From: a virus
Direction: 5' to 3' (one strand)
Length of the DNA stretch: 64,000 nt
IMG/VR virus record: IMGVR_UViG_3300031521_000011
Coordinates: 104,245 to 168,244 of that record
The notes beneath the pieces were generated by a model, which had not been told where the DNA came from, did no database searches, and saw nothing but the letters and a program-made list of their open reading frames with translations. The translations under genes were made by a program, and so were the position numbers. This document shows positions 12,209 through 48,751 of the stretch, one piece after another. Every line of letters begins with the position of its first letter. Position 1 is the stretch's first letter.

Positions 12209-13987
12209 ATGGCAGATGTTTCGTTGAGAATTACCGATGTCATTGAGATGATGGCAGGTTATATGAGAAGTAGGGTCAGGGCTGAGTATCCCGATATTGA
12301 TGTATCGGATGGCAGTCCATTCGACGATATCTTCATAGCTCCTATGAAAGAAATCTTTTCCCCATTTGTGACTATCGTTAATGAGATTGAAATTCGTAAC
12401 GATACTCCGAATGCTGCCGCATTGCCAAAGGCGATGCTTGATGAGCTTGGACAAGGAAGTTACTTTATGGTGCGCAGGGCCGGATCAAAGGCCACCGGTG
12501 AGGTAATATTTTCTTTCAAATCCATATCAGACACTCTCAACCTGATAATCCCAAAGGGGGTTATGCTCAGCACGAATGATGGATACTCCTATCAGGTATT
12601 TACTAGATTAGAGCTCTCACCGTTAGAGCTGTATGCGATGTATAACACCACAACCTTTATGTATGATATTCCCGTGCCAGTCGAAGCTCTCGATTTTGGC
12701 GAAGAATACAACGTAAATGCATACAGAGTTACCACCGTCGACACTGTATTTAGCACAAGTCTTGCTTATGTTAAAAACATATCTCCAATGACCGGAGGAG
12801 CTTCAGAGGAATCCAATGAAGAATATTGGGATAGAATCAAATCCTTTTATATCTCCAGGCAACTTGGTACGATCCCGGGGTATAAACAGTTCATTTTTGA
12901 AAACTTCCCAGAGATTGATGAGATATATGTATCCGGCCTCGGTGATAAGTATATGACCAGAGACACTATTGAATATACAGATGATGGCGTAAATAAGACC
13001 GTGACTGCTGGCGGTAAAATTGATATATATTTAAGGGGTGGTTCCTATAGCTCAGTAAAGAGTCAGGGCATAGCTAGAAACCTGAATCTACTGATTCAGG
13101 GAGCTATATATAGTACCATCGATATTACAGGAATTTCCGTATACAGGCTTGCTGATGGACCTGGACATCCAAAAGGGCGCACCGTAACTGAGTTCAGTCC
13201 GGGGACCGGACTTTCAACGCAGGCGCTTGTTGTTGTTGCAAGCACAGGCATATCTGTAGGAGATACTCTATGTGTTAGCTATTCCTATAGTCTTGATGGC
13301 GGCACTACCACGCTTACATCAACAGAAACATTTCCAATAAAGCTGTTAACGATACCGCTCTCTTGTCCTTTTGAGGATATTATATCGATTCGTAATCTGA
13401 CCCAGAATTACTACGTTGACATCTCCAACAATGCAAACTACAACATTACCACTATCAGTGATTTAGATTATGAGAATACTTCCAAGGAAGAAAAGACCAT
13501 CACGATAACTGATGCCGGCAGGCATAATGGGGATGTTATGGAGGTTGTCTATTCCTACAACCAGACAATAAACGTTCTAAATAACTTCTTCAACATAGAA
13601 GAGAATAGGATCGTAACAACAGACATTCTGCTCAAAGAAGCGCTTATTAAGTATATTAACATCTCCATGGTAATACACATGGGACCCGATTATACATATA
13701 CCTCTGACATTGCCACAAGCCTCAGAAACTCAGCAGAGCAATATTTTGGACAATTGACCATGGGGCAATCTGTACAAGAGCCTGACTTGATCAACGCACT
13801 ATATACCAATGAAAATGTTGGCGGAGCGATCGCCTACATCAACTTCCCATTGCAGGCTATGTATGTGGCAGTAGATCCTGATGCAGAGATTAGCTATAGT
13901 GCCAGGGTAGGCACATCACCAATAATCATTACGACTGAAGAAAGACAGTACGCACTGCTGAATAAAGTCGAAATTGAGGTTGTGTAA
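12209..13987 (+). CDS. Baseplate J-like protein
   Basis: RRAGSKATGEVIF, IPKGVML, VEALDFGEEYNV, TGGASEESNEEYWDRI, GGKIDIYL are typical baseplate J motifs. Confidence 0.88.
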   Translation: MADVSLRITDVIEMMAGYMRSRVRAEYPDIDVSDGSPFDDIFIAPMKEIFSPFVTIVNEIEIRNDTPNAAALPKAMLDELGQGSYFMVRRAGSKATGEVIFSFKSISDTLNLIIPKGVMLSTNDGYSYQVFTRLELSPLELYAMYNTTTFMYDIPVPVEALDFGEEYNVNAYRVTTVDTVFSTSLAYVKNISPMTGGASEESNEEYWDRIKSFYISRQLGTIPGYKQFIFENFPEIDEIYVSGLGDKYMTRDTIEYTDDGVNKTVTAGGKIDIYLRGGSYSSVKSQGIARNLNLLIQGAIYSTIDITGISVYRLADGPGHPKGRTVTEFSPGTGLSTQALVVVASTGISVGDTLCVSYSYSLDGGTTTLTSTETFPIKLLTIPLSCPFEDIISIRNLTQNYYVDISNNANYNITTISDLDYENTSKEEKTITITDAGRHNGDVMEVVYSYNQTINVLNNFFNIEENRIVTTDILLKEALIKYINISMVIHMGPDYTYTSDIATSLRNSAEQYFGQLTMGQSVQEPDLINALYTNENVGGAIAYINFPLQAMYVAVDPDAEISYSARVGTSPIIITTEERQYALLNKVEIEVV

Positions 13988-17531: not shown

Positions 17532-20480
<2,949 letters not shown>

Positions 20481-20517
20481 TATATCGAATATCAAAGAAT
20501 TAAATGGGGAGGAAATA

Positions 20518-21099
20518 ATGAAATCTGAATGGGAACAAGCAACAGATTGGGAAAGGGAATGGCACGGAAACTGTGTCAACTCATACCAAGAGGAGACTAA
20601 ACAGATTGAATACGCAAAACGAATGGGTCTGGTTATCGAAGGTAGAGATGGAAGATACCCTATTATCGATTTCCATGACAAATCTGTTATCGACGTTGGA
20701 GGTGGACCATATTCATTGCTACTCAAGGGAATCAATCTGCATGGAACCGTGCTTGATCCTTGTAAATACCCTCAATGGGTATACCAAAGATATGCGGCGG
20801 CCGGAATCCATATCATCGAGATGAAGGCTGAGGACTACTGCAATCCACGCTATGACATTGGGCTTCTGTATAACTGTCTGCAGCATACAGAAAATCCAAA
20901 GAAGATCATTGAAAATATGAAAAAGATGTGCGACTTGATTTATATCCATGAATGGCTAGATACACCAATATCGGATGGCCACATACAGACAATCCGGGAA
21001 GCGGATCTTAATGAGTGGTTAGAAGGAATTGGAATGATTGGATATGAACGCTGGAGCGACACTGTTGTAACGCCGTACTACTACGGATTGTTTATATAG
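20518..21099 (+). CDS. Class I SAM-dependent methyltransferase
   Basis: SVIDVGGGP motif I; YDIGLLYNCLQH; RBS GGAGG before ATG 20518. Confidence 0.75.
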   Translation: MKSEWEQATDWEREWHGNCVNSYQEETKQIEYAKRMGLVIEGRDGRYPIIDFHDKSVIDVGGGPYSLLLKGINLHGTVLDPCKYPQWVYQRYAAAGIHIIEMKAEDYCNPRYDIGLLYNCLQHTENPKKIIENMKKMCDLIYIHEWLDTPISDGHIQTIREADLNEWLEGIGMIGYERWSDTVVTPYYYGLFI

Positions 21100-21117
21100 A
21101 AAGAAGGAGTAAGCAGA

Positions 21118-22233
21118 ATGGAGAAACCAACAATTCATGTTATAGGGATGCCGCATATTCAAACCTCAAAAGCATATTGCAGAGATGCTTATGGAATGAA
21201 GATACTTCATTTTTGCCAAATGATGCATAAAGAAGGATACAAAATCATGCTTTATGCCAGTGAGGATAATGAGACGCCTGCCGAATTATTCACATGCATC
21301 ACTAAAGCTCAGCAAGCCAAGCTGGGTTTTGAAGGCCCTGAAGACTATCTGAACATACAGTTCGATGTCACCAAGCCTATCTGGCAGATATTTCAGTCCA
21401 GAGTGACTTATTTTCTGAATAAAAATGTAAGTCCCGGAGACATCATTGGTACATTCTCTGGGCTTTGCGACAAATCCATTGCTGACGCCTTTCCGCAATG
21501 CTATTTTGTAGAACTCGGGATCGGGTATTCTGGCGTATTTTCTGGCTTCCGCATCTTTGAATCTTATGCCTGGATGCATACGATTTACGGAGCATCCACC
21601 GGAAACGCATCTGCAACAGACGGCAAATTCTACGATACTGTGATCCCGAATTATTTTAATCCCGATGATTTTCCATTTAAAAGCGAAAAGGAAGATTATT
21701 TCCTATTCGTCGGGAGAATGATCTATCGGAAAGGAATTGTCATCATCAACGACATGGCTAAGCGTATGCCAAATACTAAATTTATCTTTGCAGGACAAGG
21801 CGCCGTTCAGTATAAAAACAAAATAGGTTGTAGCGATGGAACTGTTCTTGAGGGGGATAACCTGGAGTATATCGGAACTATCAATATAGAGCAGCGTGGT
21901 AAGCTGATGAGCGGAGCAAAAGCTCTCATTGTGCCTACTATTTACATCGGACCTTTTGAGGGCGTTCATGCAGAGGCTATGTTTTGCGGAACGCCCGTAA
22001 TAACCACGAACTTTGGTTGCTTTACAGAGACGAATATCGATGGTGTTACTGGATACCGATGCTCTACGATCAAACAATTCGTTGAAGCTGCAAGCAAGGT
22101 ATCATCCCTCGATCCTATGAAGATACGGGCTCATGCCCTGTCAAAATTTTCTATGGATAGTGTTGCTCCTCAATATACGAAATATTTTGAGCAAATTCAG
22201 GGTTTAGCTAACGGCGGATTCTATGAAATGTAG
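21118..22233 (+). CDS. Glycosyltransferase family 4 (GT-B fold)
   Basis: FLFVGRMIYRKG and PTIYIGPFEGVHAEAMFCGTPVIT motifs. Confidence 0.9.
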   Translation: MEKPTIHVIGMPHIQTSKAYCRDAYGMKILHFCQMMHKEGYKIMLYASEDNETPAELFTCITKAQQAKLGFEGPEDYLNIQFDVTKPIWQIFQSRVTYFLNKNVSPGDIIGTFSGLCDKSIADAFPQCYFVELGIGYSGVFSGFRIFESYAWMHTIYGASTGNASATDGKFYDTVIPNYFNPDDFPFKSEKEDYFLFVGRMIYRKGIVIINDMAKRMPNTKFIFAGQGAVQYKNKIGCSDGTVLEGDNLEYIGTINIEQRGKLMSGAKALIVPTIYIGPFEGVHAEAMFCGTPVITTNFGCFTETNIDGVTGYRCSTIKQFVEAASKVSSLDPMKIRAHALSKFSMDSVAPQYTKYFEQIQGLANGGFYEM

Positions 22234-22289
22234 TTGAAAACTGGCGCACTGAAAGATTATTAGGTATACTTAGATTCGGGGTGATAATT

Positions 22290-23864
22290 ATGGCTTTCGT
22301 AACGGCTGGCGTTAAAATCTACGCCACCAACTATAATAGAGTAAAGGGCAGAATAGCAGCTGAGTTAGCTCGGCGTGGATTGACATCCACATTGAGAAGC
22401 AATGTTACCGCTGGAATAAAGATGCTGGCAACTGATATGTCTAGCCTTCAAACCAATATTAATAAGATTGCCACGCACTATTCTTCGCTTATGGCGGCTG
22501 GTACTAAAATCAGAGCTTCTGACTATAATAACCTGGATGACCAAGTGCAGGCGCATGTCAACTTTGATATTTATTCGCTGGTCGCCACGGATTGCGCCTC
22601 AAGCTGTACCGGTGGATGCTATACCGCCTGCTCAGCAAGCTGTAAAAATACGTGTACCGGTAACTGCTCAACGTCCTGTAGCGGAGCGTGTGGTGTTGTC
22701 TGCACCGCTTCATGTGGTGGCTGTGGCGCAGGCTGTTGGAGTACCTGCGCGGCGGGATGCGCTGGCTGTAGCGGCACCTGCAATGGATGCACTGGACAAT
22801 GCTCATCAACATGCAAAACGGCATGCGCCGGCTGTGGAACGAGTTGCGTGACGGCATGCAGCACCGGATGCAATGGATGCACCGGGCACTGTAATGGATG
22901 CACTGGTCAATGTTCCGCCAAATGCGCTACTGTATGCGCAAGCTGCTCTGGACAGTGTAGCAGCGCATGCGCCGGTGGATGTCATGGATGCTCAGGACAG
23001 TGCGATACAGACTGCACAGGGGCCTGTACCGGGCGTTGTCTTACCGTATGCGGTGTATGTGCCTCTAGCTGCTCAAGCGCTTGTAAGGGCTGCAGTGGGT
23101 GTTCTACGTCATGCGGATCTAACTGCTCGACGAACTGTGGTACAGATTGTGCTGGTGGATGCAATACCAACTGCACTGGCTCATGTACTTCGACCTGTTC
23201 TATAGCGTGCTATAGTGTTTGCGGGGGCTGCTCTAACGGATGCGCCAGCTGTACTGGAGGATGTCAGGGTGCCTGTAAGGGATGCGATACGACGTGTAGC
23301 ACAGGATGCAGTGGGGCCTGTAAGGGGTCATGCAACAACGGCTGCACTGGTTGTGATACAGTATGTACAGGCGGCTGTAAGGGATGCAGTGCATGTGGAA
23401 ATGGAAGCTGCTCTCAATCATGCGGAATCGCGTGTTCGTCCTGCAAGGGTGCATGCACTGGTTGCTCAACCGGATGTTCTACAAGTTGTAATGCCGCATG
23501 CACTACTGGTTGCGGAAGTACCTGTGATAATAACTGCGCCAGTGATTGTGAAGGTGGATGCACCGGTACCTGTAATGGCTGTTCTACCACATGCACCGGC
23601 GGATGTTCAACCGCCTGTACGGCTTGTGGTGGAAATTGCGATAATAACTGCGCCAGTAATTGCGAGGGTGGATGCACCGGTGGATGCACGGCATGCAATA
23701 CTACATGCAGCAGTGGGTGTAAGGCAACCTGTAAAGATGCATGCGGCGGATGTGCGGCCGCATGCCTGGGTGGCTGCACTGGATGCGCCGCATTATGTAC
23801 AGGTGGCTGCACTGGATGCAGCTCCAACTGTATGGGTTCATGCAAAACGGGTGCTACTACCTGA
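22290..23864 (+). CDS. Giant CXXX-repeat Cys-rich protein, putative rSAM substrate (524 aa, 111 Cys)
   Basis: 101-aa Cys-free N-terminus, then 423 aa of CxxxC/CxxC repeats (hand count 111 Cys, no Pro); adjacent rSAM/SPASM. Confidence 0.88.
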   Translation: MAFVTAGVKIYATNYNRVKGRIAAELARRGLTSTLRSNVTAGIKMLATDMSSLQTNINKIATHYSSLMAAGTKIRASDYNNLDDQVQAHVNFDIYSLVATDCASSCTGGCYTACSASCKNTCTGNCSTSCSGACGVVCTASCGGCGAGCWSTCAAGCAGCSGTCNGCTGQCSSTCKTACAGCGTSCVTACSTGCNGCTGHCNGCTGQCSAKCATVCASCSGQCSSACAGGCHGCSGQCDTDCTGACTGRCLTVCGVCASSCSSACKGCSGCSTSCGSNCSTNCGTDCAGGCNTNCTGSCTSTCSIACYSVCGGCSNGCASCTGGCQGACKGCDTTCSTGCSGACKGSCNNGCTGCDTVCTGGCKGCSACGNGSCSQSCGIACSSCKGACTGCSTGCSTSCNAACTTGCGSTCDNNCASDCEGGCTGTCNGCSTTCTGGCSTACTACGGNCDNNCASNCEGGCTGGCTACNTTCSSGCKATCKDACGGCAAACLGGCTGCAALCTGGCTGCSSNCMGSCKTGATT

Positions 23865-23887
23865 TCTGAATGGTCCGAACACACTAC

Positions 23888-23924
23888 AATATCTGCCCGA
23901 ATCAGTTCGAGCAGATATTTTTTT
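23888..23924 (+). terminator. Rho-independent terminator after the Cys-rich gene
   Basis: AATATCTGC-c-CGAA-tcag-TTCG-a-GCAGATATT followed by T run. Confidence 0.7.
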
Positions 23925-23925
23925 C

Positions 23926-23954
23926 TTGTCAACCTATCTGTCCTGAGGTATAAT
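23926..23954 (+). promoter_or_regulatory. sigmaA/sigma70-type promoter for the rSAM maturase
   Basis: TTGTCA-17 nt-TATAAT, 31 nt upstream of ATG 23986. Confidence 0.7.
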
Positions 23955-23985
23955 ACGACCAGAATCAAAAAATAGCGAGGTAACT

Positions 23986-26328
23986 ATGTTAAGGAAGCAA
24001 GGATATCGCTCACAGTATCAGGACCTTTTCGTTCGCATGTATCCAGAACTGTGCGAAACTGGACATCAAATACTTGCAACTAAAACAATTACATTCGTGC
24101 TTACAGAGGCTTGTCCTCTGAGGTGTTCGTACTGTGTTACAGCGGGAACAATGCTTCTTGATGGAAATTTTCAGGAAGTGCCTATTGAGAAAGTTAAAAT
24201 TGGAGATACAATCATGGGATTCGATGAAAATAATCCAATGAATAGAAAGCAGAGAAAAGTATTTCCATCTAAAGTTACAGCAATATTTGAAAGGGATGCT
24301 GAAGTTATTCGCATTTCCTTTGATAATGGGGAAAGCTTAGAAATCACAGAAGAGCATCCGCTACTTACAGATAGAGGCTGGAAACTTGCTGGTAAAGTAT
24401 CCTGTGCAAATCTCGTAAAAAGCTTAACACCCAATATAAAAAATACCATACCAGTAGACATTGATAGTCTTTCATACAAGACTGGGTATGTAGTTGCCTC
24501 TTGGAAGGGCGATGGTAGTGTCAAAAGATATACACGGACAGTTGGAAATACAGAAGGTCTTGATATGTTCAAAATTCGCCTTGCGGTGAAAGATGATGAA
24601 ATAATAGACCGCACGGAAAGATTTAGCAGAAATATAGGTATTGAATTTTATAGAAAACTATATCTAGTCTCTAAAAAATATAATATGAAAAAAGAAGCTT
24701 TGTTTGCTAATACTCGAAAAGTCTATAATCAGCTAAATAATTTGTTCACAGAAAATATTGGTAGAAATGAATCTGTGGAGTATGCAAGTGGATTTTTAGC
24801 TGGAATTTATGATACAGAGGGTAGTATAAGCCCTAAGGGAATTATACGCATCTCACAACTAGAGGGTGAAGTACTGAACGAGATACAACGTTGCCTGTCT
24901 ATTCTGAAAATACCATTCGTAAACGAGGTATTTTCAGGTAGGGGTGCACACAATATTCGTATTATCGAACCCTCTTGTGAGCATACTCGAACACTCAATG
25001 CGCTACGCTTTATTAGGCAAGTACGTCCTTCTGTTGCGCGAAAAGGTGTAAGCGTTTTCTATAATAGATCCTTACTTCTTGAGACTCGCATAGTCAAAAT
25101 AGAAAAGGTAGGTAATAGAAAAGTATACAATGTTGAAACCGACTCCCATACCTACATTGCAAACTATATGGCAGTTCATAATTGCTATCAGTGCAATAAA
25201 GATCACTCAGCCATCATGAGTAAGGAAGTGGCTGATAAAGCCATCGATACAATCCTATCCAATGAGGCTATGCATGGATATATGGACTCAAATCAATCCC
25301 CATCCGTCATCCTTGACTTTATTGGCGGTGAGCCTCTGCTGGAGGCAGAGCTCATGGATTATATCGTCCAACAGTTCAGGAAGAAAGCCTACCTTCTCAA
25401 TCATCCATGGGCCAAGTACCATATGATAAGCATCTCATCCAACGGAATCCCGATTATATCGAATCCGAAGGCTGTAGAGTTTATTAAGAAATACAAAAAT
25501 AAATTGAGTCTCACCATCACAATCGATGGCAACAAGGAGCTCCATGATGCCTGCCGGGTGTATCCTTCAGGGGCTGGCTCCTATGACGACGTTCGCAAGG
25601 CCATAGACATTGCTCGGCAGTATGTCACAATGACAAACACCAAGGTGACTCTGGCACCTGAAAACGTACAGTACCTGACTGAGTCAGTCACCCACCTGTT
25701 TGATCTTGGGTTCACAGATGTGCACGCAAATTGCGTATTTGAAAACGTTTGGAAGATTGAAAATGCCCAGGAGCTATATCGACAGATGATAAAGCTTGCA
25801 GACATTATGATTGATGGAAAACTCTATGAAAAGTATGAGTGTTCCTTGTTCGATGACTTTATTGGTCACCCCATGCTCGATAGCGATACACAAAATTGGT
25901 GCGGAGGCTCAGGTCAAATGTTGGCTATTGGCACAGATGGCCGATTATTCCCATGTATTCGCTTTATGAAGTATAGCTATAGTAATCAAATTCGTGAAGA
26001 ATACGAGGTTGGCGACGTTGATCGTGGCATCGACAGGAAAGAAGATAATAAGTATCTGCAGATTCTTGGAACAATCACGCGCCAGGCTCAATCTACAGAT
26101 GAGTGCTTGACCTGCCCGGTAGCCAGCGGATGCTCCTGGTGCACAGGTTACAACTACGATTACTTCGGCACGCCGAATCACCGGGCTACATTCATCTGCT
26201 GGCCGCATAAGGCGAGGGTGTTGGCCAACCATTACTACTGGTCAAAGCTGGCTGAAGCTGGTATCATAGATACCGTTCCTGTTCTTCATTTAACTGATGA
26301 AGATATTAAGATAGTCAGGGGCGAATGA
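23986..26328 (+). CDS. Radical SAM/SPASM peptide maturase, CXXX-repeat target family, intein-containing
   Basis: After intein removal TEACPLRCSY|CYQ = CxxxCxxC; DFIGGEPLL; ITIDGNKELHDACR; SPASM WCGG...FPCIRF...CLTCPVASGCSWC...FIC. Confidence 0.92.
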   Translation: MLRKQGYRSQYQDLFVRMYPELCETGHQILATKTITFVLTEACPLRCSYCVTAGTMLLDGNFQEVPIEKVKIGDTIMGFDENNPMNRKQRKVFPSKVTAIFERDAEVIRISFDNGESLEITEEHPLLTDRGWKLAGKVSCANLVKSLTPNIKNTIPVDIDSLSYKTGYVVASWKGDGSVKRYTRTVGNTEGLDMFKIRLAVKDDEIIDRTERFSRNIGIEFYRKLYLVSKKYNMKKEALFANTRKVYNQLNNLFTENIGRNESVEYASGFLAGIYDTEGSISPKGIIRISQLEGEVLNEIQRCLSILKIPFVNEVFSGRGAHNIRIIEPSCEHTRTLNALRFIRQVRPSVARKGVSVFYNRSLLLETRIVKIEKVGNRKVYNVETDSHTYIANYMAVHNCYQCNKDHSAIMSKEVADKAIDTILSNEAMHGYMDSNQSPSVILDFIGGEPLLEAELMDYIVQQFRKKAYLLNHPWAKYHMISISSNGIPIISNPKAVEFIKKYKNKLSLTITIDGNKELHDACRVYPSGAGSYDDVRKAIDIARQYVTMTNTKVTLAPENVQYLTESVTHLFDLGFTDVHANCVFENVWKIENAQELYRQMIKLADIMIDGKLYEKYECSLFDDFIGHPMLDSDTQNWCGGSGQMLAIGTDGRLFPCIRFMKYSYSNQIREEYEVGDVDRGIDRKEDNKYLQILGTITRQAQSTDECLTCPVASGCSWCTGYNYDYFGTPNHRATFICWPHKARVLANHYYWSKLAEAGIIDTVPVLHLTDEDIKIVRGE
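24133..25182 (+). mobile_element. Intein with LAGLIDADG homing endonuclease (350 aa)
   Basis: Block A CVTAGT, block B TEEHPLLT, YVVASWKGDGS and FLAGIYDTEGS endonuclease motifs, VYNVET...YIANYMAVHN|C; more AT-rich than flanks. Confidence 0.95.
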
Positions 26329-27152
26329 GAATGAAATATAAACCGTTTTTTGGCGTTACAGAAAAGATTGATGACGATATTGCGGATATAAAGAAGGAAT
26401 CTGCAAAGATTCGTGAACCCGAAATTGGATGTTCAGTAGGCTGCTTTGGCTGTGGAACTACATGTATTGGAGCATGCTTTGCTGCATGCGTCGGTGCATG
26501 CATAGGTAACTGCGCTGGTAGCTCCATGGGGAATATGAAGCCCCCTGTCGTATGTAATCAGCCAAAATGCATGAGCTGCAGCAGCGAAGAGGTATTAATG
26601 TCATTTCCTGTTACGGAGGATTTGAGCTTATATCTTGAAAAACTCCTTACCGAGAGGATATCGCTGCAAGAGATTATTATATCGGTAGGGAATGACCCAA
26701 CCATCGAGAATGACGAAAAATTTCAAGAACTTATGCAGCAATATAAAGATGCATTCGTGGCGTGGGACTACTGCTACATAATGCTGGCAAAGGAATATGT
26801 TCCTGCAGAATATATGGGCGGTATTTCATTTTCATTCAACGAAAAAACATTCGTATATAAAGGAGAGGTAAAAAACATGAGCAATGCAAAAGTACTCACA
26901 GAAGCCATCGAGTCAGAGGAAAAGGATACCCTTCAGAACAGCTGGTACGACAGAGAGGCACTCCATGAGCTGATCAAGGAAGGCTCCACATCCATCGAAG
27001 TAATGAGGGAATTCAAGGAAGCCAACCGTATCTATCAAAAGACATGGAACGATCTGCTGAAGAAGTATTTCCCCAGCGTGGATACATCAACCAACGGCAC
27101 GGCATCGTGGACTTGCGACTTCGAGGCCAACACGGTCACGGTCACCATGTAG
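26325..27152 (+). CDS. Short Cys-rich precursor fused to two CXXX-repeat modification-system helper-like domains
   Basis: GCSVGCFGCGTTCIGACFAACVGACIGNC, then two ~90-aa related domains ending ISFSFNEKTF and WTCDFEANTVTV; in-frame internal RBS+ATG at 26877. Confidence 0.7.
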   Translation: MRMKYKPFFGVTEKIDDDIADIKKESAKIREPEIGCSVGCFGCGTTCIGACFAACVGACIGNCAGSSMGNMKPPVVCNQPKCMSCSSEEVLMSFPVTEDLSLYLEKLLTERISLQEIIISVGNDPTIENDEKFQELMQQYKDAFVAWDYCYIMLAKEYVPAEYMGGISFSFNEKTFVYKGEVKNMSNAKVLTEAIESEEKDTLQNSWYDREALHELIKEGSTSIEVMREFKEANRIYQKTWNDLLKKYFPSVDTSTNGTASWTCDFEANTVTVTM

Positions 27153-27165
27153 GGAGGTTCTGATA

Positions 27166-27597
27166 ATGAAAATATCTCTAAAGAATCTCCAGAGCCTATA
27201 TCTAGCTCATCAGAATCTTCTCAGTTTCGAGTTGAGTGGCCGGTTTGGATATATGGCTGCCATAAATCTACAGGTTCTGGAACCGGCCTGGGAGGAATAT
27301 GTCAAGCGCAGACAAATCCTCGAAATGTCCTACGCTCATAAAGAAGATGGGCAAATTATGCGCGACTTAACCGGCGGTATCATCTTTGATGATGAAGAAA
27401 AATACCAATCAGAACTGGATAAACTCCAGCGCACAATCTCTAATGTCCCCCTATATGTATTCGAGAGAGAAGATGTTGTAGAACATGGAAGAATACTGGG
27501 GGCCATCATGTACAACCTTCTACCCGTCATGCCGGATCTGGCGTGGCCAATTGTGCCCGTAATGGCAGAAAGCGAGGATGCATCATGTCAGCAGTAA
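27166..27597 (+). CDS. DUF1617-like phage protein
   Basis: LSGRFGYMAAINLQVL...RRQILEMSYAHKEDG pattern; common position between fibres and lysin. Confidence 0.45.
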   Translation: MKISLKNLQSLYLAHQNLLSFELSGRFGYMAAINLQVLEPAWEEYVKRRQILEMSYAHKEDGQIMRDLTGGIIFDDEEKYQSELDKLQRTISNVPLYVFEREDVVEHGRILGAIMYNLLPVMPDLAWPIVPVMAESEDASCQQ

Positions 27598-28484
27598 TTG
27601 GGAGAAAGCCAAAGGTAGCTCTGACCAGGGGGCATGACCCCAGCACGCCCGGGAAGCGCTCGTTCGATGGAAAGCTCAGGGAGTGGGCCTTCAACGATGA
27701 CATGGCCGCGCGCCTTAATAAGCATCTGCTGTTCAATGGGATCGACGTCCTATTGACGATCCCTACCGGAGGAGCGGATGCGCTGCCGGACATCAACACC
27801 CACAATGGATATCTTAACCGCAAGGCGCGTATCGCCAAGATCAACGCCTGGAAGCCGGATCTGGAGATCGAGTTCCACGCCAATGCCTGTGGTACCAACT
27901 GGAATAGCGGCCGTGGGCAAATCCTCTATATCGCAGCGTCAAAGAGGGGAACGGACTCCGAAAAATTCATCAATGTGCTTCGCAAATACATGCGCTCTGT
28001 GGCCGGCACTGGCTCTATCACGCCGGATCGTGGATTCGGCTATAAGAACTTTGATATCGTGAATGGCGTCAAAGCTCCATGCTGCCTGATCGAGCATGCT
28101 TTCATGACGAATCACGAAGACGTTGCATTGCTATTGAGTGATGTGCAGCGCGATAAATGGGCCGAGGCAGAGGCCCGGGCCGTCTGCGAGTGGTTCGCTA
28201 TTCCGTTTAAAAACTACAAAAATGTTGTTACGCCGCCAAAGCCGCCAAAGCCACCGGTTCCGAAAATGCCCACCCTCAAGCGCGGCATGGTGAATAATGA
28301 TGATGTTCGTAAGCTGCAGAATGCCATCAATAAGTTCATCGCAGACAAAAAGAATTGGCTTGATGTGGATGGAGACTTCGGAGAACTGACAGAACAGGCC
28401 CTTATAGCTGTCCAGAAGGCATTACTGCCCTCTTCCCCCTTGGGAGTTGCCGATCAAGCAACCTGGGACAAGCTACTGGCATAA
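27585..28484 (+). CDS. Endolysin: N-acetylmuramoyl-L-alanine amidase (Amidase_3) + PG-binding domain
   Basis: LTRGHD..REW..EFHANA..CLIEHAFMTN; PTLKRG..DVDGDFGELTEQA. Confidence 0.92.
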   Translation: MSAVIGRKPKVALTRGHDPSTPGKRSFDGKLREWAFNDDMAARLNKHLLFNGIDVLLTIPTGGADALPDINTHNGYLNRKARIAKINAWKPDLEIEFHANACGTNWNSGRGQILYIAASKRGTDSEKFINVLRKYMRSVAGTGSITPDRGFGYKNFDIVNGVKAPCCLIEHAFMTNHEDVALLLSDVQRDKWAEAEARAVCEWFAIPFKNYKNVVTPPKPPKPPVPKMPTLKRGMVNNDDVRKLQNAINKFIADKKNWLDVDGDFGELTEQALIAVQKALLPSSPLGVADQATWDKLLA

Positions 28485-28499
28485 CATGAGCCCAGCATC

Positions 28500-28525
28500 A
28501 GAGAGCGCGTCATGCGCTCTCTTTT
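28500..28525 (+). terminator. Rho-independent terminator
   Basis: AGAGAGCGC-gtcat-GCGCTCTCT-TTT. Confidence 0.7.
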
Positions 28526-28619
28526 GCTATGATAAACTTTTGTATCGCTCTGGCATCTGACCACCATATGTGGTATCATTTTTATTGAACTAAAAAAAGG
28601 AATATGGAGGTGCCTAACC

Positions 28620-29123
28620 ATGGCTGAGACACCTAAAGGCGTATGCCCGGCCCATGAATATTTCGAGAAAAATATAACCGATGGGCTCAACAATATATTA
28701 AGGGTTGTTGAAGAAATGAAGTCTGATCAACGATCTGAGATAGACAGTATCAAGAACAGGCTTGACCGGGTTGAGACAACGCAGAGGGATTCAGCAATTG
28801 TTAATGAACGTATAAAAATCATTTCAGAAGAAAATGGAAGAAAATACGATCAAATACAAACAACCCTCAGTAGTGTCGTCGATAAATTGGATAAGACATG
28901 CACTGCGGTTGCCAGGACTCAAGGCGCCGAAGAAGCAAGAAAGCAGATGACAAGTCAATCTGCTAGTCAAAAAAAAAATTCGGAAACCGCCCCATCGTCG
29001 AGCGCAAAGCCGGATTCTAATATTAGTCGGGCACTTCTTATCTCAGTTATCGCACTGGCTATCGTAATTTTAGTCTTGATTGGTGTGAAGATTGAGGATA
29101 TAATAAAGATCGTAAAGCCATAG
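28620..29123 (+). CDS. Coiled-coil protein with C-terminal TM helix (holin/lysis accessory-like)
   Basis: ALLISVIALAIVILVLIGV TM; next to endolysin. Confidence 0.5.
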   Translation: MAETPKGVCPAHEYFEKNITDGLNNILRVVEEMKSDQRSEIDSIKNRLDRVETTQRDSAIVNERIKIISEENGRKYDQIQTTLSSVVDKLDKTCTAVARTQGAEEARKQMTSQSASQKKNSETAPSSSAKPDSNISRALLISVIALAIVILVLIGVKIEDIIKIVKP

Positions 29124-29146
29124 CGCTTACAGTAGGAGGTACAATC

Positions 29147-29635
29147 ATGTTCTTTCATAACATTGGAACTTTTATAGCAACTAACTGGACACTGCTTCTG
29201 GCGCTTGTCCTGGTTGTTGCCCTCTTGGCCGTACTCTTGATCGGCAAAAAGAACAAACTCGTGCTGCAGTTCATGCTGTTGGCTGAAAAGAAAGCTGACG
29301 ACTATTGCCTGCGCACAGGGGAGGATAAAATCTCATTTGTAGCAGATTTTGTCCTATCTCAGCTTAGAAGGCTGCCATTCGGAAACATACTCGCCATATT
29401 TATACCTCGAACTGCGGTTATTAAAGCCGTCGACTATCTATTATATCAGGCATATGACTATGTTGATGACGGAAAATTTGATGATAGCTGGACCCCTGAA
29501 GAGGAAGAGAAGCTGAAACAAGAATTATTGGACAATTATAATGAATCAAAATCCCAGTTGCCTGAATCAGTTACTGCTGTAGTTTCGGACACTGCGCCAC
29601 CCGCCGGCGAGGAAAGCATTGCTCCTGGAGAGTAG
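29147..29635 (+). CDS. Putative holin (single N-terminal TM, LL-H-like)
   Basis: NWTLLLALVLVVALLAVLLI then AEK..TGEDK; end of lysis cassette. Confidence 0.6.
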   Translation: MFFHNIGTFIATNWTLLLALVLVVALLAVLLIGKKNKLVLQFMLLAEKKADDYCLRTGEDKISFVADFVLSQLRRLPFGNILAIFIPRTAVIKAVDYLLYQAYDYVDDGKFDDSWTPEEEEKLKQELLDNYNESKSQLPESVTAVVSDTAPPAGEESIAPGE

Positions 29636-29653: not shown

Positions 29654-29685
29654 AGGGCGGGGATTTCTCCCCGCCCTATTTCTTT
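29654..29685. terminator. Terminator at the convergence of the + and - operons
   Basis: AGGGCGGGGA-tttc-TCCCCGCCCT with pyrimidine tails on both strands. Confidence 0.75.
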
Positions 29686-37640: not shown

Positions 37641-38492
37641 CTAAAAGACGATGGTATATGGCTGAACGATTAAGCCAAGGGCTACAGAAATATCTCCGTT
37701 GGTCCACCCTGTAGTTGGATCATACATCTTCATCGTCACAGATCCTGGATTATCCGGATCCGTGACAGTATTATAATGCATGGAGACAAAATCGCTTTGA
37801 CCCTCGAATGCAGCCATCAACTCATACAGATAAAAGCTTTGCAATAGTATCGGTTCCTTGTCGTTAAGGGAAGGATTCATGATATTCTTTGCTGGCAGTA
37901 TTAACTTTATAGCGAATGATCGTTCTTTTTCCTTTGCTTCTTTGGTCATATTGTAGAATTTGAATTCCAGACTCATATTGGATATGTCTGGAATTATTGC
38001 CACAAATTTCCGCATTTTCTCCGCCCAGCTATTTTTGAAGATTAAATCCATCTGATCAATGAACTCCTTACGGTTAAAGACAAACATCTGGTCCTTCCAG
38101 TCCATAAAAAATCCATGGAACATATGGATATTGAGTCGTTCCGGCTGGGTGAAGGTTACGGTATCCCAAAGATCATCTTCATATCTGTAAAAAATATGAG
38201 TTAATCCGCCGGCAGCTTTCTCCCTGGAGATTACTTGCAGCAGAACATCTTCAGATTGCGTGATGCTTTCACCCTTCAGCTCGAAGAGTACCGTGCCGCC
38301 CGGCTGCCGGTCCGGTATCCTGACCCGTATAAAGAAGTGGCCGTTGGTGGCATAGGCCCATTGGCCTGCGAATACGACCCCACAAAGGTCGTATTCGTCT
38401 GTATTCTTGAAAAATCCGTATCCCTTCACCCGGCGCTGAATATCGCTGATAAAACTAAGATGCCTGACGACATCAGACTTTGCATTGAACAT
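37641..38492 (-). CDS. Divergent beta-clamp (DnaN)-like protein
   Basis: LCGVVF...AYATNGHF resembles DnaN LxGV...ATDGHRL; ILLQSFYLYELMAAF resembles FNxxYLxxxL. Confidence 0.45.
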   Translation of the reverse strand: MFNAKSDVVRHLSFISDIQRRVKGYGFFKNTDEYDLCGVVFAGQWAYATNGHFFIRVRIPDRQPGGTVLFELKGESITQSEDVLLQVISREKAAGGLTHIFYRYEDDLWDTVTFTQPERLNIHMFHGFFMDWKDQMFVFNRKEFIDQMDLIFKNSWAEKMRKFVAIIPDISNMSLEFKFYNMTKEAKEKERSFAIKLILPAKNIMNPSLNDKEPILLQSFYLYELMAAFEGQSDFVSMHYNTVTDPDNPGSVTMKMYDPTTGWTNGDISVALGLIVQPYTIVF

Positions 38493-38761
38493 TACATTCC
38501 CTCCGTCAATTTTATTTGGGCAGCATTATAGATTTCATTCTCGTAGGCATATGCGAATTTATTTGCATCCAAGTATTTGATGATTTCGTCAATGCTGACA
38601 TCATCCTTTTTCATTTCATAGAGAATATCGTAGCATTTTGCTATAATATCCCCTACGATTTCACTATAGAGGAGACGGACATTGACAATAACACCATGCT
38701 TTCTTATAAGTCTGGACATGGTTTCTGTTACGATTTTCTCGAAATCCTGAGTGCGTATCAA
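38492..38761 (-). CDS. Hypothetical protein
   Basis: Coupled to neighbours; SD AGGAG. Confidence 0.55.
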   Translation of the reverse strand: MIRTQDFEKIVTETMSRLIRKHGVIVNVRLLYSEIVGDIIAKCYDILYEMKKDDVSIDEIIKYLDANKFAYAYENEIYNAAQIKLTEGM

Positions 38762-39054
38762 TGTATCCGTCTCCTTTCTTCAAATAAAGATATTTGCGAT
38801 GAGTTAACAATCCGACCATCCTCATCTCGCTGATACGTGAACCTATATGAGTCCAATGTGGACTCTATATTACTGGGGGAGACCTCCTCCATCAGTATTG
38901 CGCATTCATAGTCGGACGCTTCAAAGTCTAATCCCTTGCTGTAGATATAGGAGCATACCAGTATCTGGGCACACTCCATCACCACGCTTACCTTCGGTAT
39001 CCTGCCTTCCAGTTCCCAAGCCTCTCGATATGCAGACACCAATATCTCATCCAC
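38758..39054 (-). CDS. Hypothetical protein with QISLF clamp-binding-like motif
   Basis: Overlapping start/stop with neighbours; C-terminal SQISLFEE. Confidence 0.55.
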   Translation of the reverse strand: MDEILVSAYREAWELEGRIPKVSVVMECAQILVCSYIYSKGLDFEASDYECAILMEEVSPSNIESTLDSYRFTYQRDEDGRIVNSSQISLFEERRRIH

Positions 39055-39712
39055 TCTTGGACAACTCCATTCGATCTACGCTTAATATGTTGCTGTATGG
39101 CATTTCTATCAGCAGGGTCTGTGCTGCATTATCCACATATTCCTCTGTAAAAACATTCATCTTAATTCCATCGATGGCCACCGTCTTACACTCGAATCTC
39201 AGATAACATAATTTATGGTAATCAAGGACATCCTGTATAGAGCACTCCATTGCGCCACCCATGGAGGAATACATCTCCGTCAGCATTTCCTCGTATTCGA
39301 TGATAAATTCATGAACGTCTTCAGCTTCAGTTTCGCCTTTAGACAGCGCTTCCTCGAAGCATACAATAATGGCCTCCATATCCTCTCCAAGCTCAGACAT
39401 TGCAATATTATGTATTATTTCCTCAAACTTTCCATAGACATCGCAATCCATTTCCTCGAGAGATGGCGGTTTGAGATCCTGAACATCGTCAAGGATACCT
39501 TTCTGTCTCCACAGTGTCTCATAAGACATAATGGTTTCCCTCTCGAACCAATCGTTGACCCCGCCCCGGCCCAGCTTCCATCCCGGATACGCCATCTGTT
39601 GCAGATCCCAAATACATTCTGGATCCAGTGCATCAAACAGCGCATCCGGTACGAGAGACCACCTTCTTGCGGGTTCGTCAGAACCCGTATTTGCATAATA
39701 GTCTCCGCTCAT
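39047..39712 (-). CDS. Acidic hypothetical protein
   Basis: Operon packing. Confidence 0.6.
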   Translation of the reverse strand: MSGDYYANTGSDEPARRWSLVPDALFDALDPECIWDLQQMAYPGWKLGRGGVNDWFERETIMSYETLWRQKGILDDVQDLKPPSLEEMDCDVYGKFEEIIHNIAMSELGEDMEAIIVCFEEALSKGETEAEDVHEFIIEYEEMLTEMYSSMGGAMECSIQDVLDYHKLCYLRFECKTVAIDGIKMNVFTEEYVDNAAQTLLIEMPYSNILSVDRMELSKSG

Positions 39713-47755: not shown

Positions 47756-48023
47756 AATTACCTACCTCCTCACGATATTTTTTCTCAAATTCAATGAGAG
47801 TCTTAATTTGGGCATCTATGTGTTTGCGAGCAGCGTCTGAATAGCGGTAAGAATATCCAATTATACATCCGCCAATAGCAATTTGAGTGTCACCATAAAG
47901 GAACTCATATGAATAGCAGTTATTCGGACACACTTGCTGTTCTTCGCATACACCGAAATTCTCAGTATACACCGAGACCTTCATGTCGGCACCACATATC
48001 GGGCATGGGTGACCATCATTCAT
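47673..48023 (-). CDS. Zn-ribbon hypothetical protein
   Basis: CPICG...CPNNC; overlaps the sbcC-N start. Confidence 0.45.
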   Translation of the reverse strand: MNDGHPCPICGADMKVSVYTENFGVCEEQQVCPNNCYSYEFLYGDTQIAIGGCIIGYSYRYSDAARKHIDAQIKTLIEFEKKYREEVGNYEEIPTQAPGQTGSDQFPKPRIDDGPF

Positions 48024-48751
48024 TTTTTAGAATCCTCCTTCACTTTGATAGCCCTGTGTACTATGTCGAAAATCGGCTCATCATTCATATTTCCGACAGA
48101 TTGTTCTTTCTGGCTTTCGTAGGAATAGTCACATCCGAACATCACATCTCCGATAGCGCTGATATATAACACATCAACATTAACTTCCTGATCAGTGAAG
48201 GTGTTCATGGAATACTGGTCTTGCGCCATAGAATCACCGAGTCCCCACTCGATTGCATTGCCTTCCTCGATGAGGTGCTCTCCCTCTATATTGACTTTAT
48301 CGTACGGCCTATAAAACACCAGCGCTTTATATTTTGATTGCGCAACCATGTCGCACTGCTCATGAAATGGATCCTCAGAAACAGCAAGACCACAGTAAGC
48401 GTCTTCAAGTGTTCTAATCATCACCATATGCCCATAGAGACTAATGAGAGAATCTACCATTTCTTCACTGTACACTTTGGCATTTGTGACGATGTAAAAT
48501 CCATCCACATCAATTTTTCTATAAATGATGCGATCCACAAAATACTTGATAACATTGGATGCAAGGCTAGGTTCTCCGCCAGTAAATGCGATGCTGGAAA
48601 ATGTAACCTGGTCCAGTATACTGTCGATCATTTCAAATCCCATATCGCGAGGCTCTGCTGGACCACGCAGGCAATGCCGACATTCCATATTGCAGCGCCG
48701 GGTCACTTCCACAACCAGGTTGCTACAGAGTGTTCTGCGATCCCTAGTCAT
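48020..48751 (-). CDS. Stand-alone radical SAM protein
   Basis: VEVTRRCNMECRHC; AFTGGEP; IVTNA. Confidence 0.85.
   Translation of the reverse strand: MTRDRRTLCSNLVVEVTRRCNMECRHCLRGPAEPRDMGFEMIDSILDQVTFSSIAFTGGEPSLASNVIKYFVDRIIYRKIDVDGFYIVTNAKVYSEEMVDSLISLYGHMVMIRTLEDAYCGLAVSEDPFHEQCDMVAQSKYKALVFYRPYDKVNIEGEHLIEEGNAIEWGLGDSMAQDQYSMNTFTDQEVNVDVLYISAIGDVMFGCDYSYESQKEQSVGNMNDEPIFDIVHRAIKVKEDSKK

Follow-up and report, generated by a model that had tools for sequence, protein, structure and literature searches.

We report a three-gene cassette in the genome of an uncultured phage, which codes for an exceptionally cysteine-rich repeat protein (open reading frame 1, ORF1), a radical S-adenosylmethionine (radical-SAM)/SPASM enzyme interrupted by an intein (ORF2), and a third protein with two putative helper domains (ORF3). 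The cassette lies in a 64,000-nt stretch of DNA, henceforth the window, comprising bases 104245-168244, i.e. the final 64 kb, of the 168,244-bp IMG/VR record IMGVR_UViG_3300031521_000011, which is rated complete. Genes for related enzymes are accompanied by genes for comparable Cys ladders in other phages and in prophage-type loci, and such cassettes recur next to genes for tail components. The pattern is real and far beyond chance; by the measure of sequence comparison, the cassette is a protein-sized phage variant of the catalogued CXXX-repeat radical-SAM system, and its association with tail genes is reproducible. We posit, with a probability of roughly one half, that it is a late-expressed phage version of this maturation system and that its product is a stapled, tail-fibre-associated part of the virion. 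The cassette has the following features:

22290-23864, + strand: ORF1, the Cys-ladder protein, 524 aa from the ATG at 22290 or 527 aa from a GTG at 22281
22290-22592, + strand: three-helix adaptor of ORF1, about 100 residues, delineated by alignment and an AlphaFold2 (AF2) model
22593-23843, + strand: CXXX/CXX ladder of ORF1, 417 residues, from Cys105 to Cys521
23926-23954, + strand: sigma-70-like promoter match in the gap before the radical-SAM gene (TTGTCA, 17 nt, TATAAT; 11/12 positions), a consensus match only
23986-26328, + strand: ORF2, precursor of the radical-SAM/SPASM maturase, 780 aa, or 430 aa once spliced
24133-25182, + strand: intein with LAGLIDADG endonuclease in ORF2, residues 50-399 (350 aa), from sequence reading and Pfam
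26325-27152, + strand: ORF3, a mini-ladder followed by two helper domains, 275 aa

A first-pass annotation, made from the sequence alone, had described three + strand ORFs at these positions, with 111 Cys in the first and its start at the ATG at 22290, and had recognized in this first protein a target of protein size; all of this stands.

The ORF2 precursor scores 403.6 bits against TIGR04115, the enzyme family of the CXXX-repeat system, for which the curated cut-off is 350. When the exteins are considered separately, the N-extein covers positions 1-23 of the model and the C-extein positions 14-359, the latter with 395.4 bits. The other family matches of ORF2 are to Radical_SAM, Fer4_12, LAGLIDADG_3 and Intein_splicing. 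The CX3CX2C cluster motif characteristic of the radical-SAM core is made up of C43-PLR-C47-SY and C400, and is thus whole only once the intein has been spliced out. Seven Cys of the SPASM region (C240, C258, C308, C311, C317, C320 and C339, in the numbering of P0002:400-780) are invariant among the relatives, the seven-Cys criterion of SPASM denoting two auxiliary clusters. The next-best families, namely PapB (NF047865; 173.5 bits, E=6.5e-51, cut-off 340), CcpM, the SCIFF maturase (85.8 bits) and QhpD (81.3 bits), all score far below their cut-offs, and the nearest solved structure is that of the SCIFF maturase CteB (5WGG, E=5.4e-17). As only about 35 residues precede the radical-SAM core, there appears to be no room in ORF2 for a recognition domain such as the RiPP (ribosomally made and post-translationally modified peptide) recognition element (RRE). 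The ladder gene lies upstream, separated from ORF2 by 121 bp.

The intein separates C43-x3-C47-x2 from C400, the third cluster Cys, which serves as its +1 residue. It begins with C50 (CVTAGT), has a block B with T121-E-E-H124, and ends with H398-N399 (AVHN) ahead of C400, while both LAGLIDADG motifs (KGDGS and YDTEGS) are present. In Pfam it matches LAGLIDADG_3 with 28.7 bits (cut-off 22.5), Intein_splicing with 30.7 bits (below the cut-off of 35.8), and Hint. It displays every sequence feature expected of a class 1 intein with a LAGLIDADG homing endonuclease. In the closest relative, L013, this site is occupied by the same intein, with 55% identity over the whole precursor and open frames. 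Lodged within the cluster-binding motif, the intein would constitute a natural post-translational switch for the activity of the enzyme. In L013, an ORF resembling a GIY-YIG-type homing endonuclease (L013:4719-5273, by inspection) lies between the intein-bearing radical-SAM gene and the helper gene; judging by these sequences, L013 would hold selfish elements of two kinds.

The 111 Cys of ORF1 fall without exception within residues 105-521 (numbering from the GTG at 22281); the 110 intervals between successive Cys span 4 residues in 84 cases, 3 residues in 25 and 5 residues in one. The ladder is composed of 27% Cys, 19% Gly, 14% Ser and 13% Thr, and is devoid of both Pro and Phe. The residues between the Cys are mostly Gly, Ser, Thr, Ala and Asn, along with Lys, while other aromatic residues are near zero; 11 Asp/Glu occur in its 417 residues, and Asp104 sits directly before it. 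The DNA contains a single weak repeat of 114 bp (1.8 copies, 74% identity), and hence the register is maintained at the protein level and does not stem from recent slippage. Translation likely starts at the ATG at 22290, given the ribosome-binding site GGGGTGA upstream of it. By size, the protein ranks second among 115 distinct ladder proteins, behind that of L135 (L135:5177-7129, from a metagenome-assembled genome labelled uncultured Tenericutes), an adaptor-ladder protein of 650 residues with 145 Cys. ORF1 has no signal peptide, no other large ladder is encoded elsewhere in the whole phage genome, and a tblastn search with the N-terminal part of ORF1 found no match among phages, whereas residues 52-178 match the family phrog_6085 (E=6.7e-15).

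Preceding the ladder is an adaptor, which is predicted to form three helices (AF2 model, mean pLDDT 71.7) and which, in the alignment of relatives, shows the motifs I-x-A-x-D-F-x-x-L-K-x-R-V-x-A-E-x-x-R-R and E-H-x-x-K. An exhaustive phmmer search with ORF1 residues 1-112 against 1.84 billion representatives returned a single match (P0004, E=2.6e-4), and we take the adaptor of the window to be a divergent member of its family on the basis of sequence. Among longer proteins, an adaptor profile retrieved only PF27846-bearing ladder proteins of about 200-240 aa. Across the 115 distinct ladder proteins, the adaptor precedes the ladder in 62 and follows it in 14, and the ladder stands alone in 31. 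A fold search with the adaptor model yielded no match in the PDB, and the best BFVD hits were uncharacterised gut-phage proteins.

The start of ORF3 overlaps the stop of the radical-SAM gene (ATGA). Its N-terminal part contains a hydrophobic mini-ladder with Cys at positions 36, 40, 43, 47, 51, 55, 59 and 63 (nt 26430-26513), which are spaced by Ile, Val, Phe and Ala. This is followed by two tandem domains (residues 88-182 and 181-275), each of which resembles the helper proteins of about 100 aa encoded by 10 other cassettes; one cassette (L021) encodes both domains as separate genes. A profile of this helper family aligns over its full length (hhalign, 93.2% probability, E=3e-7, 86 columns) with the genuine TIGR04116 protein of the cellular cassette L004, itself scoring 104.6 bits on TIGR04116. 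The second domain of ORF3 is modelled by AF2 with a beta-alpha-alpha-beta-beta layout (pLDDT 88.7); Foldseek and a wide search of the PDB with the helper model gave no informative neighbour, the best Z of 6.7 reflecting a generic helical hairpin only. A predicted complex of both helper domains with the ORF1 adaptor scored 0.00, and as it was run without controls, it speaks neither for nor against binding.

The first-pass annotation had proposed that the three genes form a CXXX-repeat radical-SAM/SPASM system, and the score of ORF2 on TIGR04115 bears this out; the family numbers it had given (TIGR04114, TIGR04115 and TIGR04116) also proved correct. In the profile search of all three ORFs that it had suggested, ORF2 was recovered by TIGR04115, but ORF1 and ORF3 remained below the cut-offs of their respective families. 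ORF1 scores 19.2 bits on TIGR04117 (cut-off 50) and 13.3-14.2 bits (as fragments) on TIGR04114 (cut-off 20), values that composition filters may have lowered, even as it has the tandem Cys-Xaa-Xaa-Xaa register that marks the targets of these families. ORF3 scores 17.1 bits as a whole and 18.6 bits for residues 181-275 on TIGR04116, against a cut-off of 50. The system would hence be complete by function-level analogy and remote homology, without each of the three proteins being a formal member of its family.

A search of IMG/VR with a profile of four enzymes recovered relatives of ORF2 on 356 contigs. The best 80 of these contigs were fetched, and together with the window and loci fetched earlier they form 24 clusters at 80% identity. 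In nearly every fetched locus with sufficient flank, a same-strand Cys-ladder ORF with 11 to 92 Cys lies within about 3 kb of the enzyme gene, and the same pairing is seen in many prophage-type loci of Clostridia genomes. The closest bacterial relatives of the enzyme (up to 52% identity) are found in Clostridia and other Bacillota, and remoter ones in Bacteroidota and Ignavibacteria; bacterial genomes hold both adaptor-type ladder proteins and short peptides of 60-120 residues. Sequenced isolates with adaptor-type ladder cassettes include Neglectibacter timonensis SN17 (L121), Vallitalea maricola AN17-2 (L093) and Desulfocucumis palustris NAW-5 (L096).

To assess linkage, we took 18 distinct cassettes and scanned, to either side of each, the three large genes closest to it, 80 proteins altogether. 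Baseplate wedge (7 members) is among the commonest PHROG families in this set, along with tail fibre, tail collar fibre, tail protein and endolysin/amidase. A lack of tail linkage among homologous cassettes, which the first-pass annotation had named as grounds for refutation, is thus not what is seen. In at least six lineages (L003, L005, L008, L021, L059 and L092), the cassette has fibre-like genes both before and after it. Moreover, ladders are fused to other domains: in L092 the ladder is joined to two ALK_LTK_GRD domains (PF12810, E=6.9e-99), and in P0005 an N-terminal module of 190 residues precedes the adaptor and ladder. The latter module is common to 2889 proteins with variable C-termini, including PF12810, PF19789, FN3 and Kelch domains, an architecture which, as judged from sequence, is that of modular receptor-binding proteins. 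Of the large late genes that precede a prophage integrase, the last is, in one case, a gene with a P0005-type module. As a PHROG scan of the prophage locus L173, which has such a module, recovered almost no annotated families, the tail-fibre nature of the module in that locus is suggested by its position and modular architecture only. The ladder protein of L013 has a different addition, an extra N-terminal domain of 175 residues.

Several further observations concern these relatives. In L003 (7283-8392), L008 (1-1149) and L013 (56-700), the gene directly upstream of the ladder gene shares a C-terminal domain (N-D-Y-A-E-Y ... G-R-V-R-V-R-V), which in L013 stands after collagen-like repeats and is probably, from its sequence, a fibre C-terminal domain. 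Two low-GC IMG/VR phages, L006 (9824-11200) and L007, with genomes of 157 and 155 kb, have a radical-SAM gene with six in-frame TAG codons that ends in TAA; open frames in both lengthen when TAG is read through, and they probably reassign this codon. L004 (MT837480.1, 2222-6270) is a Bacteroidota-type cellular cassette, the CXXX target of which has a twin-arginine signal (RREFF). Its gene order is target, radical-SAM enzyme, a second SPASM-like protein, the TIGR04116 helper and, by inspection, tatA-like and tatC-like genes, which hints at export of the cellular product in a folded state via the twin-arginine translocation (Tat) pathway.

The cassette shares its strand with the tail and lysis genes of the window, within a block of + strand late genes that runs from the window start to ~29.7 kb and includes large structural proteins. 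The relevant features around it are:

12209-13987, + strand: Baseplate_J protein (profile match)
17532-20480, + strand: fibre of 982 residues, comprising a tail-collar domain and long collagen repeats (Pfam Collar, E=5.3e-21; Collagen, E=5.6e-32)
20392-21099, + strand: methyltransferase-like ORF (phrog_3603)
21118-22233, + strand: glycosyltransferase of the GT4 family (profile match)
27166-27597, + strand: 143-aa ORF between the cassette and the endolysin (phrog_1401, E=1.6e-6)
27543-28484, + strand: endolysin with Amidase_3 and PG_binding_1 domains (Pfam)
28620-29635, + strand: two holin-like ORFs with strongly hydrophobic segments
28500-28522 and 29654-29677: terminator-like hairpins, after the endolysin and at the end of the late block, respectively

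The placement between tail-fibre/glycosylation genes and lysis genes, and the lack of a leader peptidase or exporter, were also part of the first-pass annotation and hold up: the collagen/collar fibre and the GT4 gene lie upstream and the Amidase_3 endolysin downstream, and family scans detected no peptidase, transporter or exporter within about 10 kb of the cassette and no metal-handling genes near it. Between the fibre and the cassette there is no terminator-like hairpin of a strength comparable to the two listed above. The methyltransferase and the GT4 protein were considered as members of the system and dropped, as neither was found beside other cassettes. Membership of the 143-aa ORF is uncertain, and it has no detectable relative among the other cassettes. 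With its listed start, the endolysin ORF shares 55 nt (27543-27597) with the 143-aa ORF; the true start is more likely the ATG at 27585, 42 nt downstream of the listed one. A nucleotide search with window positions 20000-29000 found no match among GenBank phages. Elsewhere, the - strand of the window between 52058 and 62520 encodes 14 tRNAs (three Leu, Val, two Ser, two Tyr, Asp, Thr, Ile, Met, Gly and Pro), and a Cys tRNA is not among them despite the 111-Cys gene. A second, small radical-SAM protein of 243 aa (window 48020-48751, - strand; Pfam Radical_SAM, E=2.1e-7) is encoded among the early/replication-side genes and is unrelated to the cassette, while a 272-aa ORF with a C-x3-C-x2-C motif, known from this pattern alone, lies at genome positions 38254-39072.

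We envisage that the ORF2 precursor splices such that C43-x3-C47-x2 is joined to C400, generating a 430-residue active enzyme with a [4Fe-4S]-binding CX3CX2C motif. As the enzyme appears to lack an N-terminal recognition domain, handling of the substrate would most likely fall to ORF3, with its two tandem TIGR04116-like putative helper domains and its own small ladder. The substrate would be ORF1, i.e. the three-helix adaptor followed by the 417-residue ladder. This ladder is predicted to lack a hydrophobic core and could attain structure only through cross-links or bound metal. The enzyme would most likely convert many of its Cys thiols into intramolecular thioethers to nearby residues, giving rise to a stapled, protease-resistant rod, which in turn most likely belongs to the virion as a component associated with the tail fibres. 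Such incorporation is a reasonable reading of the synteny and the domain fusions, which constitute the evidence for it.

Thioether formation is the default expectation because all the characterised relatives that score against ORF2 (PapB, the SCIFF maturase and QhpD) form Cys thioethers. Nevertheless, for most of the Cys the details would have to differ from those of PapB, which requires a carboxylate acceptor (Asp/Glu or the C-terminal carboxylate) located C-terminal to the Cys and uses an RRE of its own to dock the leader (PMC12373016). A Cys-X3-Asp/Glu motif is generally wanting in ORF1, where the i+4 residue is usually Cys. Given the paucity of acidic residues, any acceptor would have to be of another kind, for instance a carbon in the backbone or side chain of Gly, Ser, Thr, Ala or Asn; a second option is that many of the Cys are kept for another purpose such as metal binding.

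Several points weigh against a stapled virion component. The slot between tail fibre and lysis genes is a classic site for accessory cargo (morons), and position by itself is hence weak evidence. With 11 Asp/Glu for 111 Cys, PapB-type chemistry as deduced from sequence cannot serve most of the ladder, and the reaction may not be thioether formation at all. Neither ORF1 nor ORF3 scores above the curated cut-offs set for TIGR04114, TIGR04117 and TIGR04116, and fold searches with the models of adaptor and helper turned up no informative neighbour. Further, the C-terminal position of the adaptor in 14 of the 115 ladder proteins, and its exclusive company with ladders, would fit an element recognized by the maturase at least as well as a virion-docking domain. 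This last point accords with an alternative that we consider unlikely, wherein the matured ladder protein does not enter the particle and is instead late-made accessory cargo, set free at lysis or retained inside the cell. In this proposal it could be a very large RiPP-like product directed against competitors, the host envelope or the environment, with the fibre/lysis site being merely a cargo site and the adaptor, found on either side of the ladder, acting like a leader or follower sequence. The short peptides of 60-120 aa encoded by cellular systems are in keeping with this, as are the Tat signal of the L004 target and the adjoining tatA/tatC-like genes, which suggest that the ancestral product was exported and not structural. 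However, ORF1 has neither a signal peptide nor a protease or exporter nearby, and a product of 524 residues is far above the size of any RiPP known to us. Cargo also does not readily explain the location of the cassette between fibre genes, and not only at the end of a module, in at least six lineages, or the ladder fusions to modular fibre-type domains in L092 and P0005.

The shortage of acceptors for PapB chemistry could also mean that the ladder binds metal or iron-sulfur clusters as a giant metallothionein-like thiolate scaffold, with the radical-SAM enzyme oxidising, epimerising or tailoring a few residues while most Cys stay free. The composition of the ladder, rich in Cys, Gly, Ser, Thr, Ala, Asn and Lys and without Pro or Phe, does resemble that of metallothioneins, and a Tat signal on the L004 target fits the export of a folded, possibly cofactor-loaded protein. 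Yet metallothioneins have mostly CXC and CXXC motifs, from which the regular four-residue register differs, no metal-handling genes are found nearby, and the ladders are strictly paired throughout the family with a SPASM maturase, the characterised relatives of which all consume Cys thiols; we accordingly regard a metal scaffold as rather improbable. We give very little credence to the possibility that the cassette is inactive baggage, with an intein that no longer splices or a ladder that is a functionless runaway repeat expansion. It is true that the enzyme could not bind its cluster without splicing and that the Intein_splicing score is below the gathering cut-off, but all residues of the splice junctions have been preserved along with both LAGLIDADG motifs, and the intein-bearing gene has been kept with open frames in L013 at 55% identity. 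Likewise, none of the three ORFs is disrupted and they are tightly coupled, and the retention of the Cys register over 417 residues with almost no DNA-level repeats points to selection. Between these alternatives, we favour the stapled, tail-fibre-associated product.

A more far-reaching version of this preferred reading, which we put forward only tentatively and regard as somewhat doubtful, is that many phages of anaerobes build a tail part from a core-less polypeptide that is stapled by a radical-SAM enzyme at up to ~100 sites per chain, using a chemistry distinct from that of PapB (e.g. from Cys sulfur to a carbon of Gly, Ser, Thr or Asn). If true, this would be the first case of a virion protein cross-linked by a radical-SAM enzyme, and the thioether ladder would be a new material. 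Should the preferred reading hold, phage assembly would gain a new class of post-translational modification, and RiPP-type radical chemistry would build a structural protein of a virus and not only small secreted peptides. It could also explain the resistance of some phage fibres in anaerobic habitats to proteases and reducing conditions. The TIGR04115 family, thus far only a bioinformatic entity, would gain its first biological role along with a tractable substrate, and an enzyme acting at >100 sites per chain without Asp/Glu acceptors would be of interest for peptide-stapling biocatalysis.

Among known systems, the cassette most closely resembles the CXXX-repeat system of NCBIfam/TIGRFAMs (TIGR04115, TIGR04114/TIGR04117 and TIGR04116), which is defined bioinformatically; our literature searches found no experimental study of it and no paper on its occurrence in phages. 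The two share an enzyme scoring above the TIGR04115 cut-off, a target in which Cys recur in a four-residue register, a small associated protein with a beta-alpha-alpha-beta-beta layout and a C-terminal W-x-x-D-F hairpin motif, and adjacent genes on one strand. They differ in that the target in the window has 524 aa and 111 Cys, as against the tens of residues of the cellular targets, and an adaptor of ~100 residues in place of a short leader or Tat signal, while the helper is doubled and joined to a mini-ladder, an intein interrupts the enzyme, and the setting is that of phage tail and lysis genes. The PapB/PapA (freyrasin) ranthipeptide system of Paenibacillus polymyxa includes the best-scoring characterised radical-SAM/SPASM relative, a thioether-forming enzyme whose substrate likewise has repeated Cys motifs with three-residue spacers (CX3D); in contrast, the i+4 residue in the window is Cys, the ladder has 11 acidic residues, and the enzyme appears to have no space for an RRE. 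The SCIFF maturase CteB and QhpD are SPASM radical-SAM enzymes, like ORF2, and form Cys thioethers, but the scores of ORF2 on their families are well short of the respective cut-offs of 425 and 453, and their substrates have a handful of Cys and not a ladder of >100. Nevertheless, QhpD, the maturase of the gamma subunit of quinohemoprotein amine dehydrogenase, modifies a protein subunit and not a released peptide, and thereby offers a precedent for substrates of protein size.

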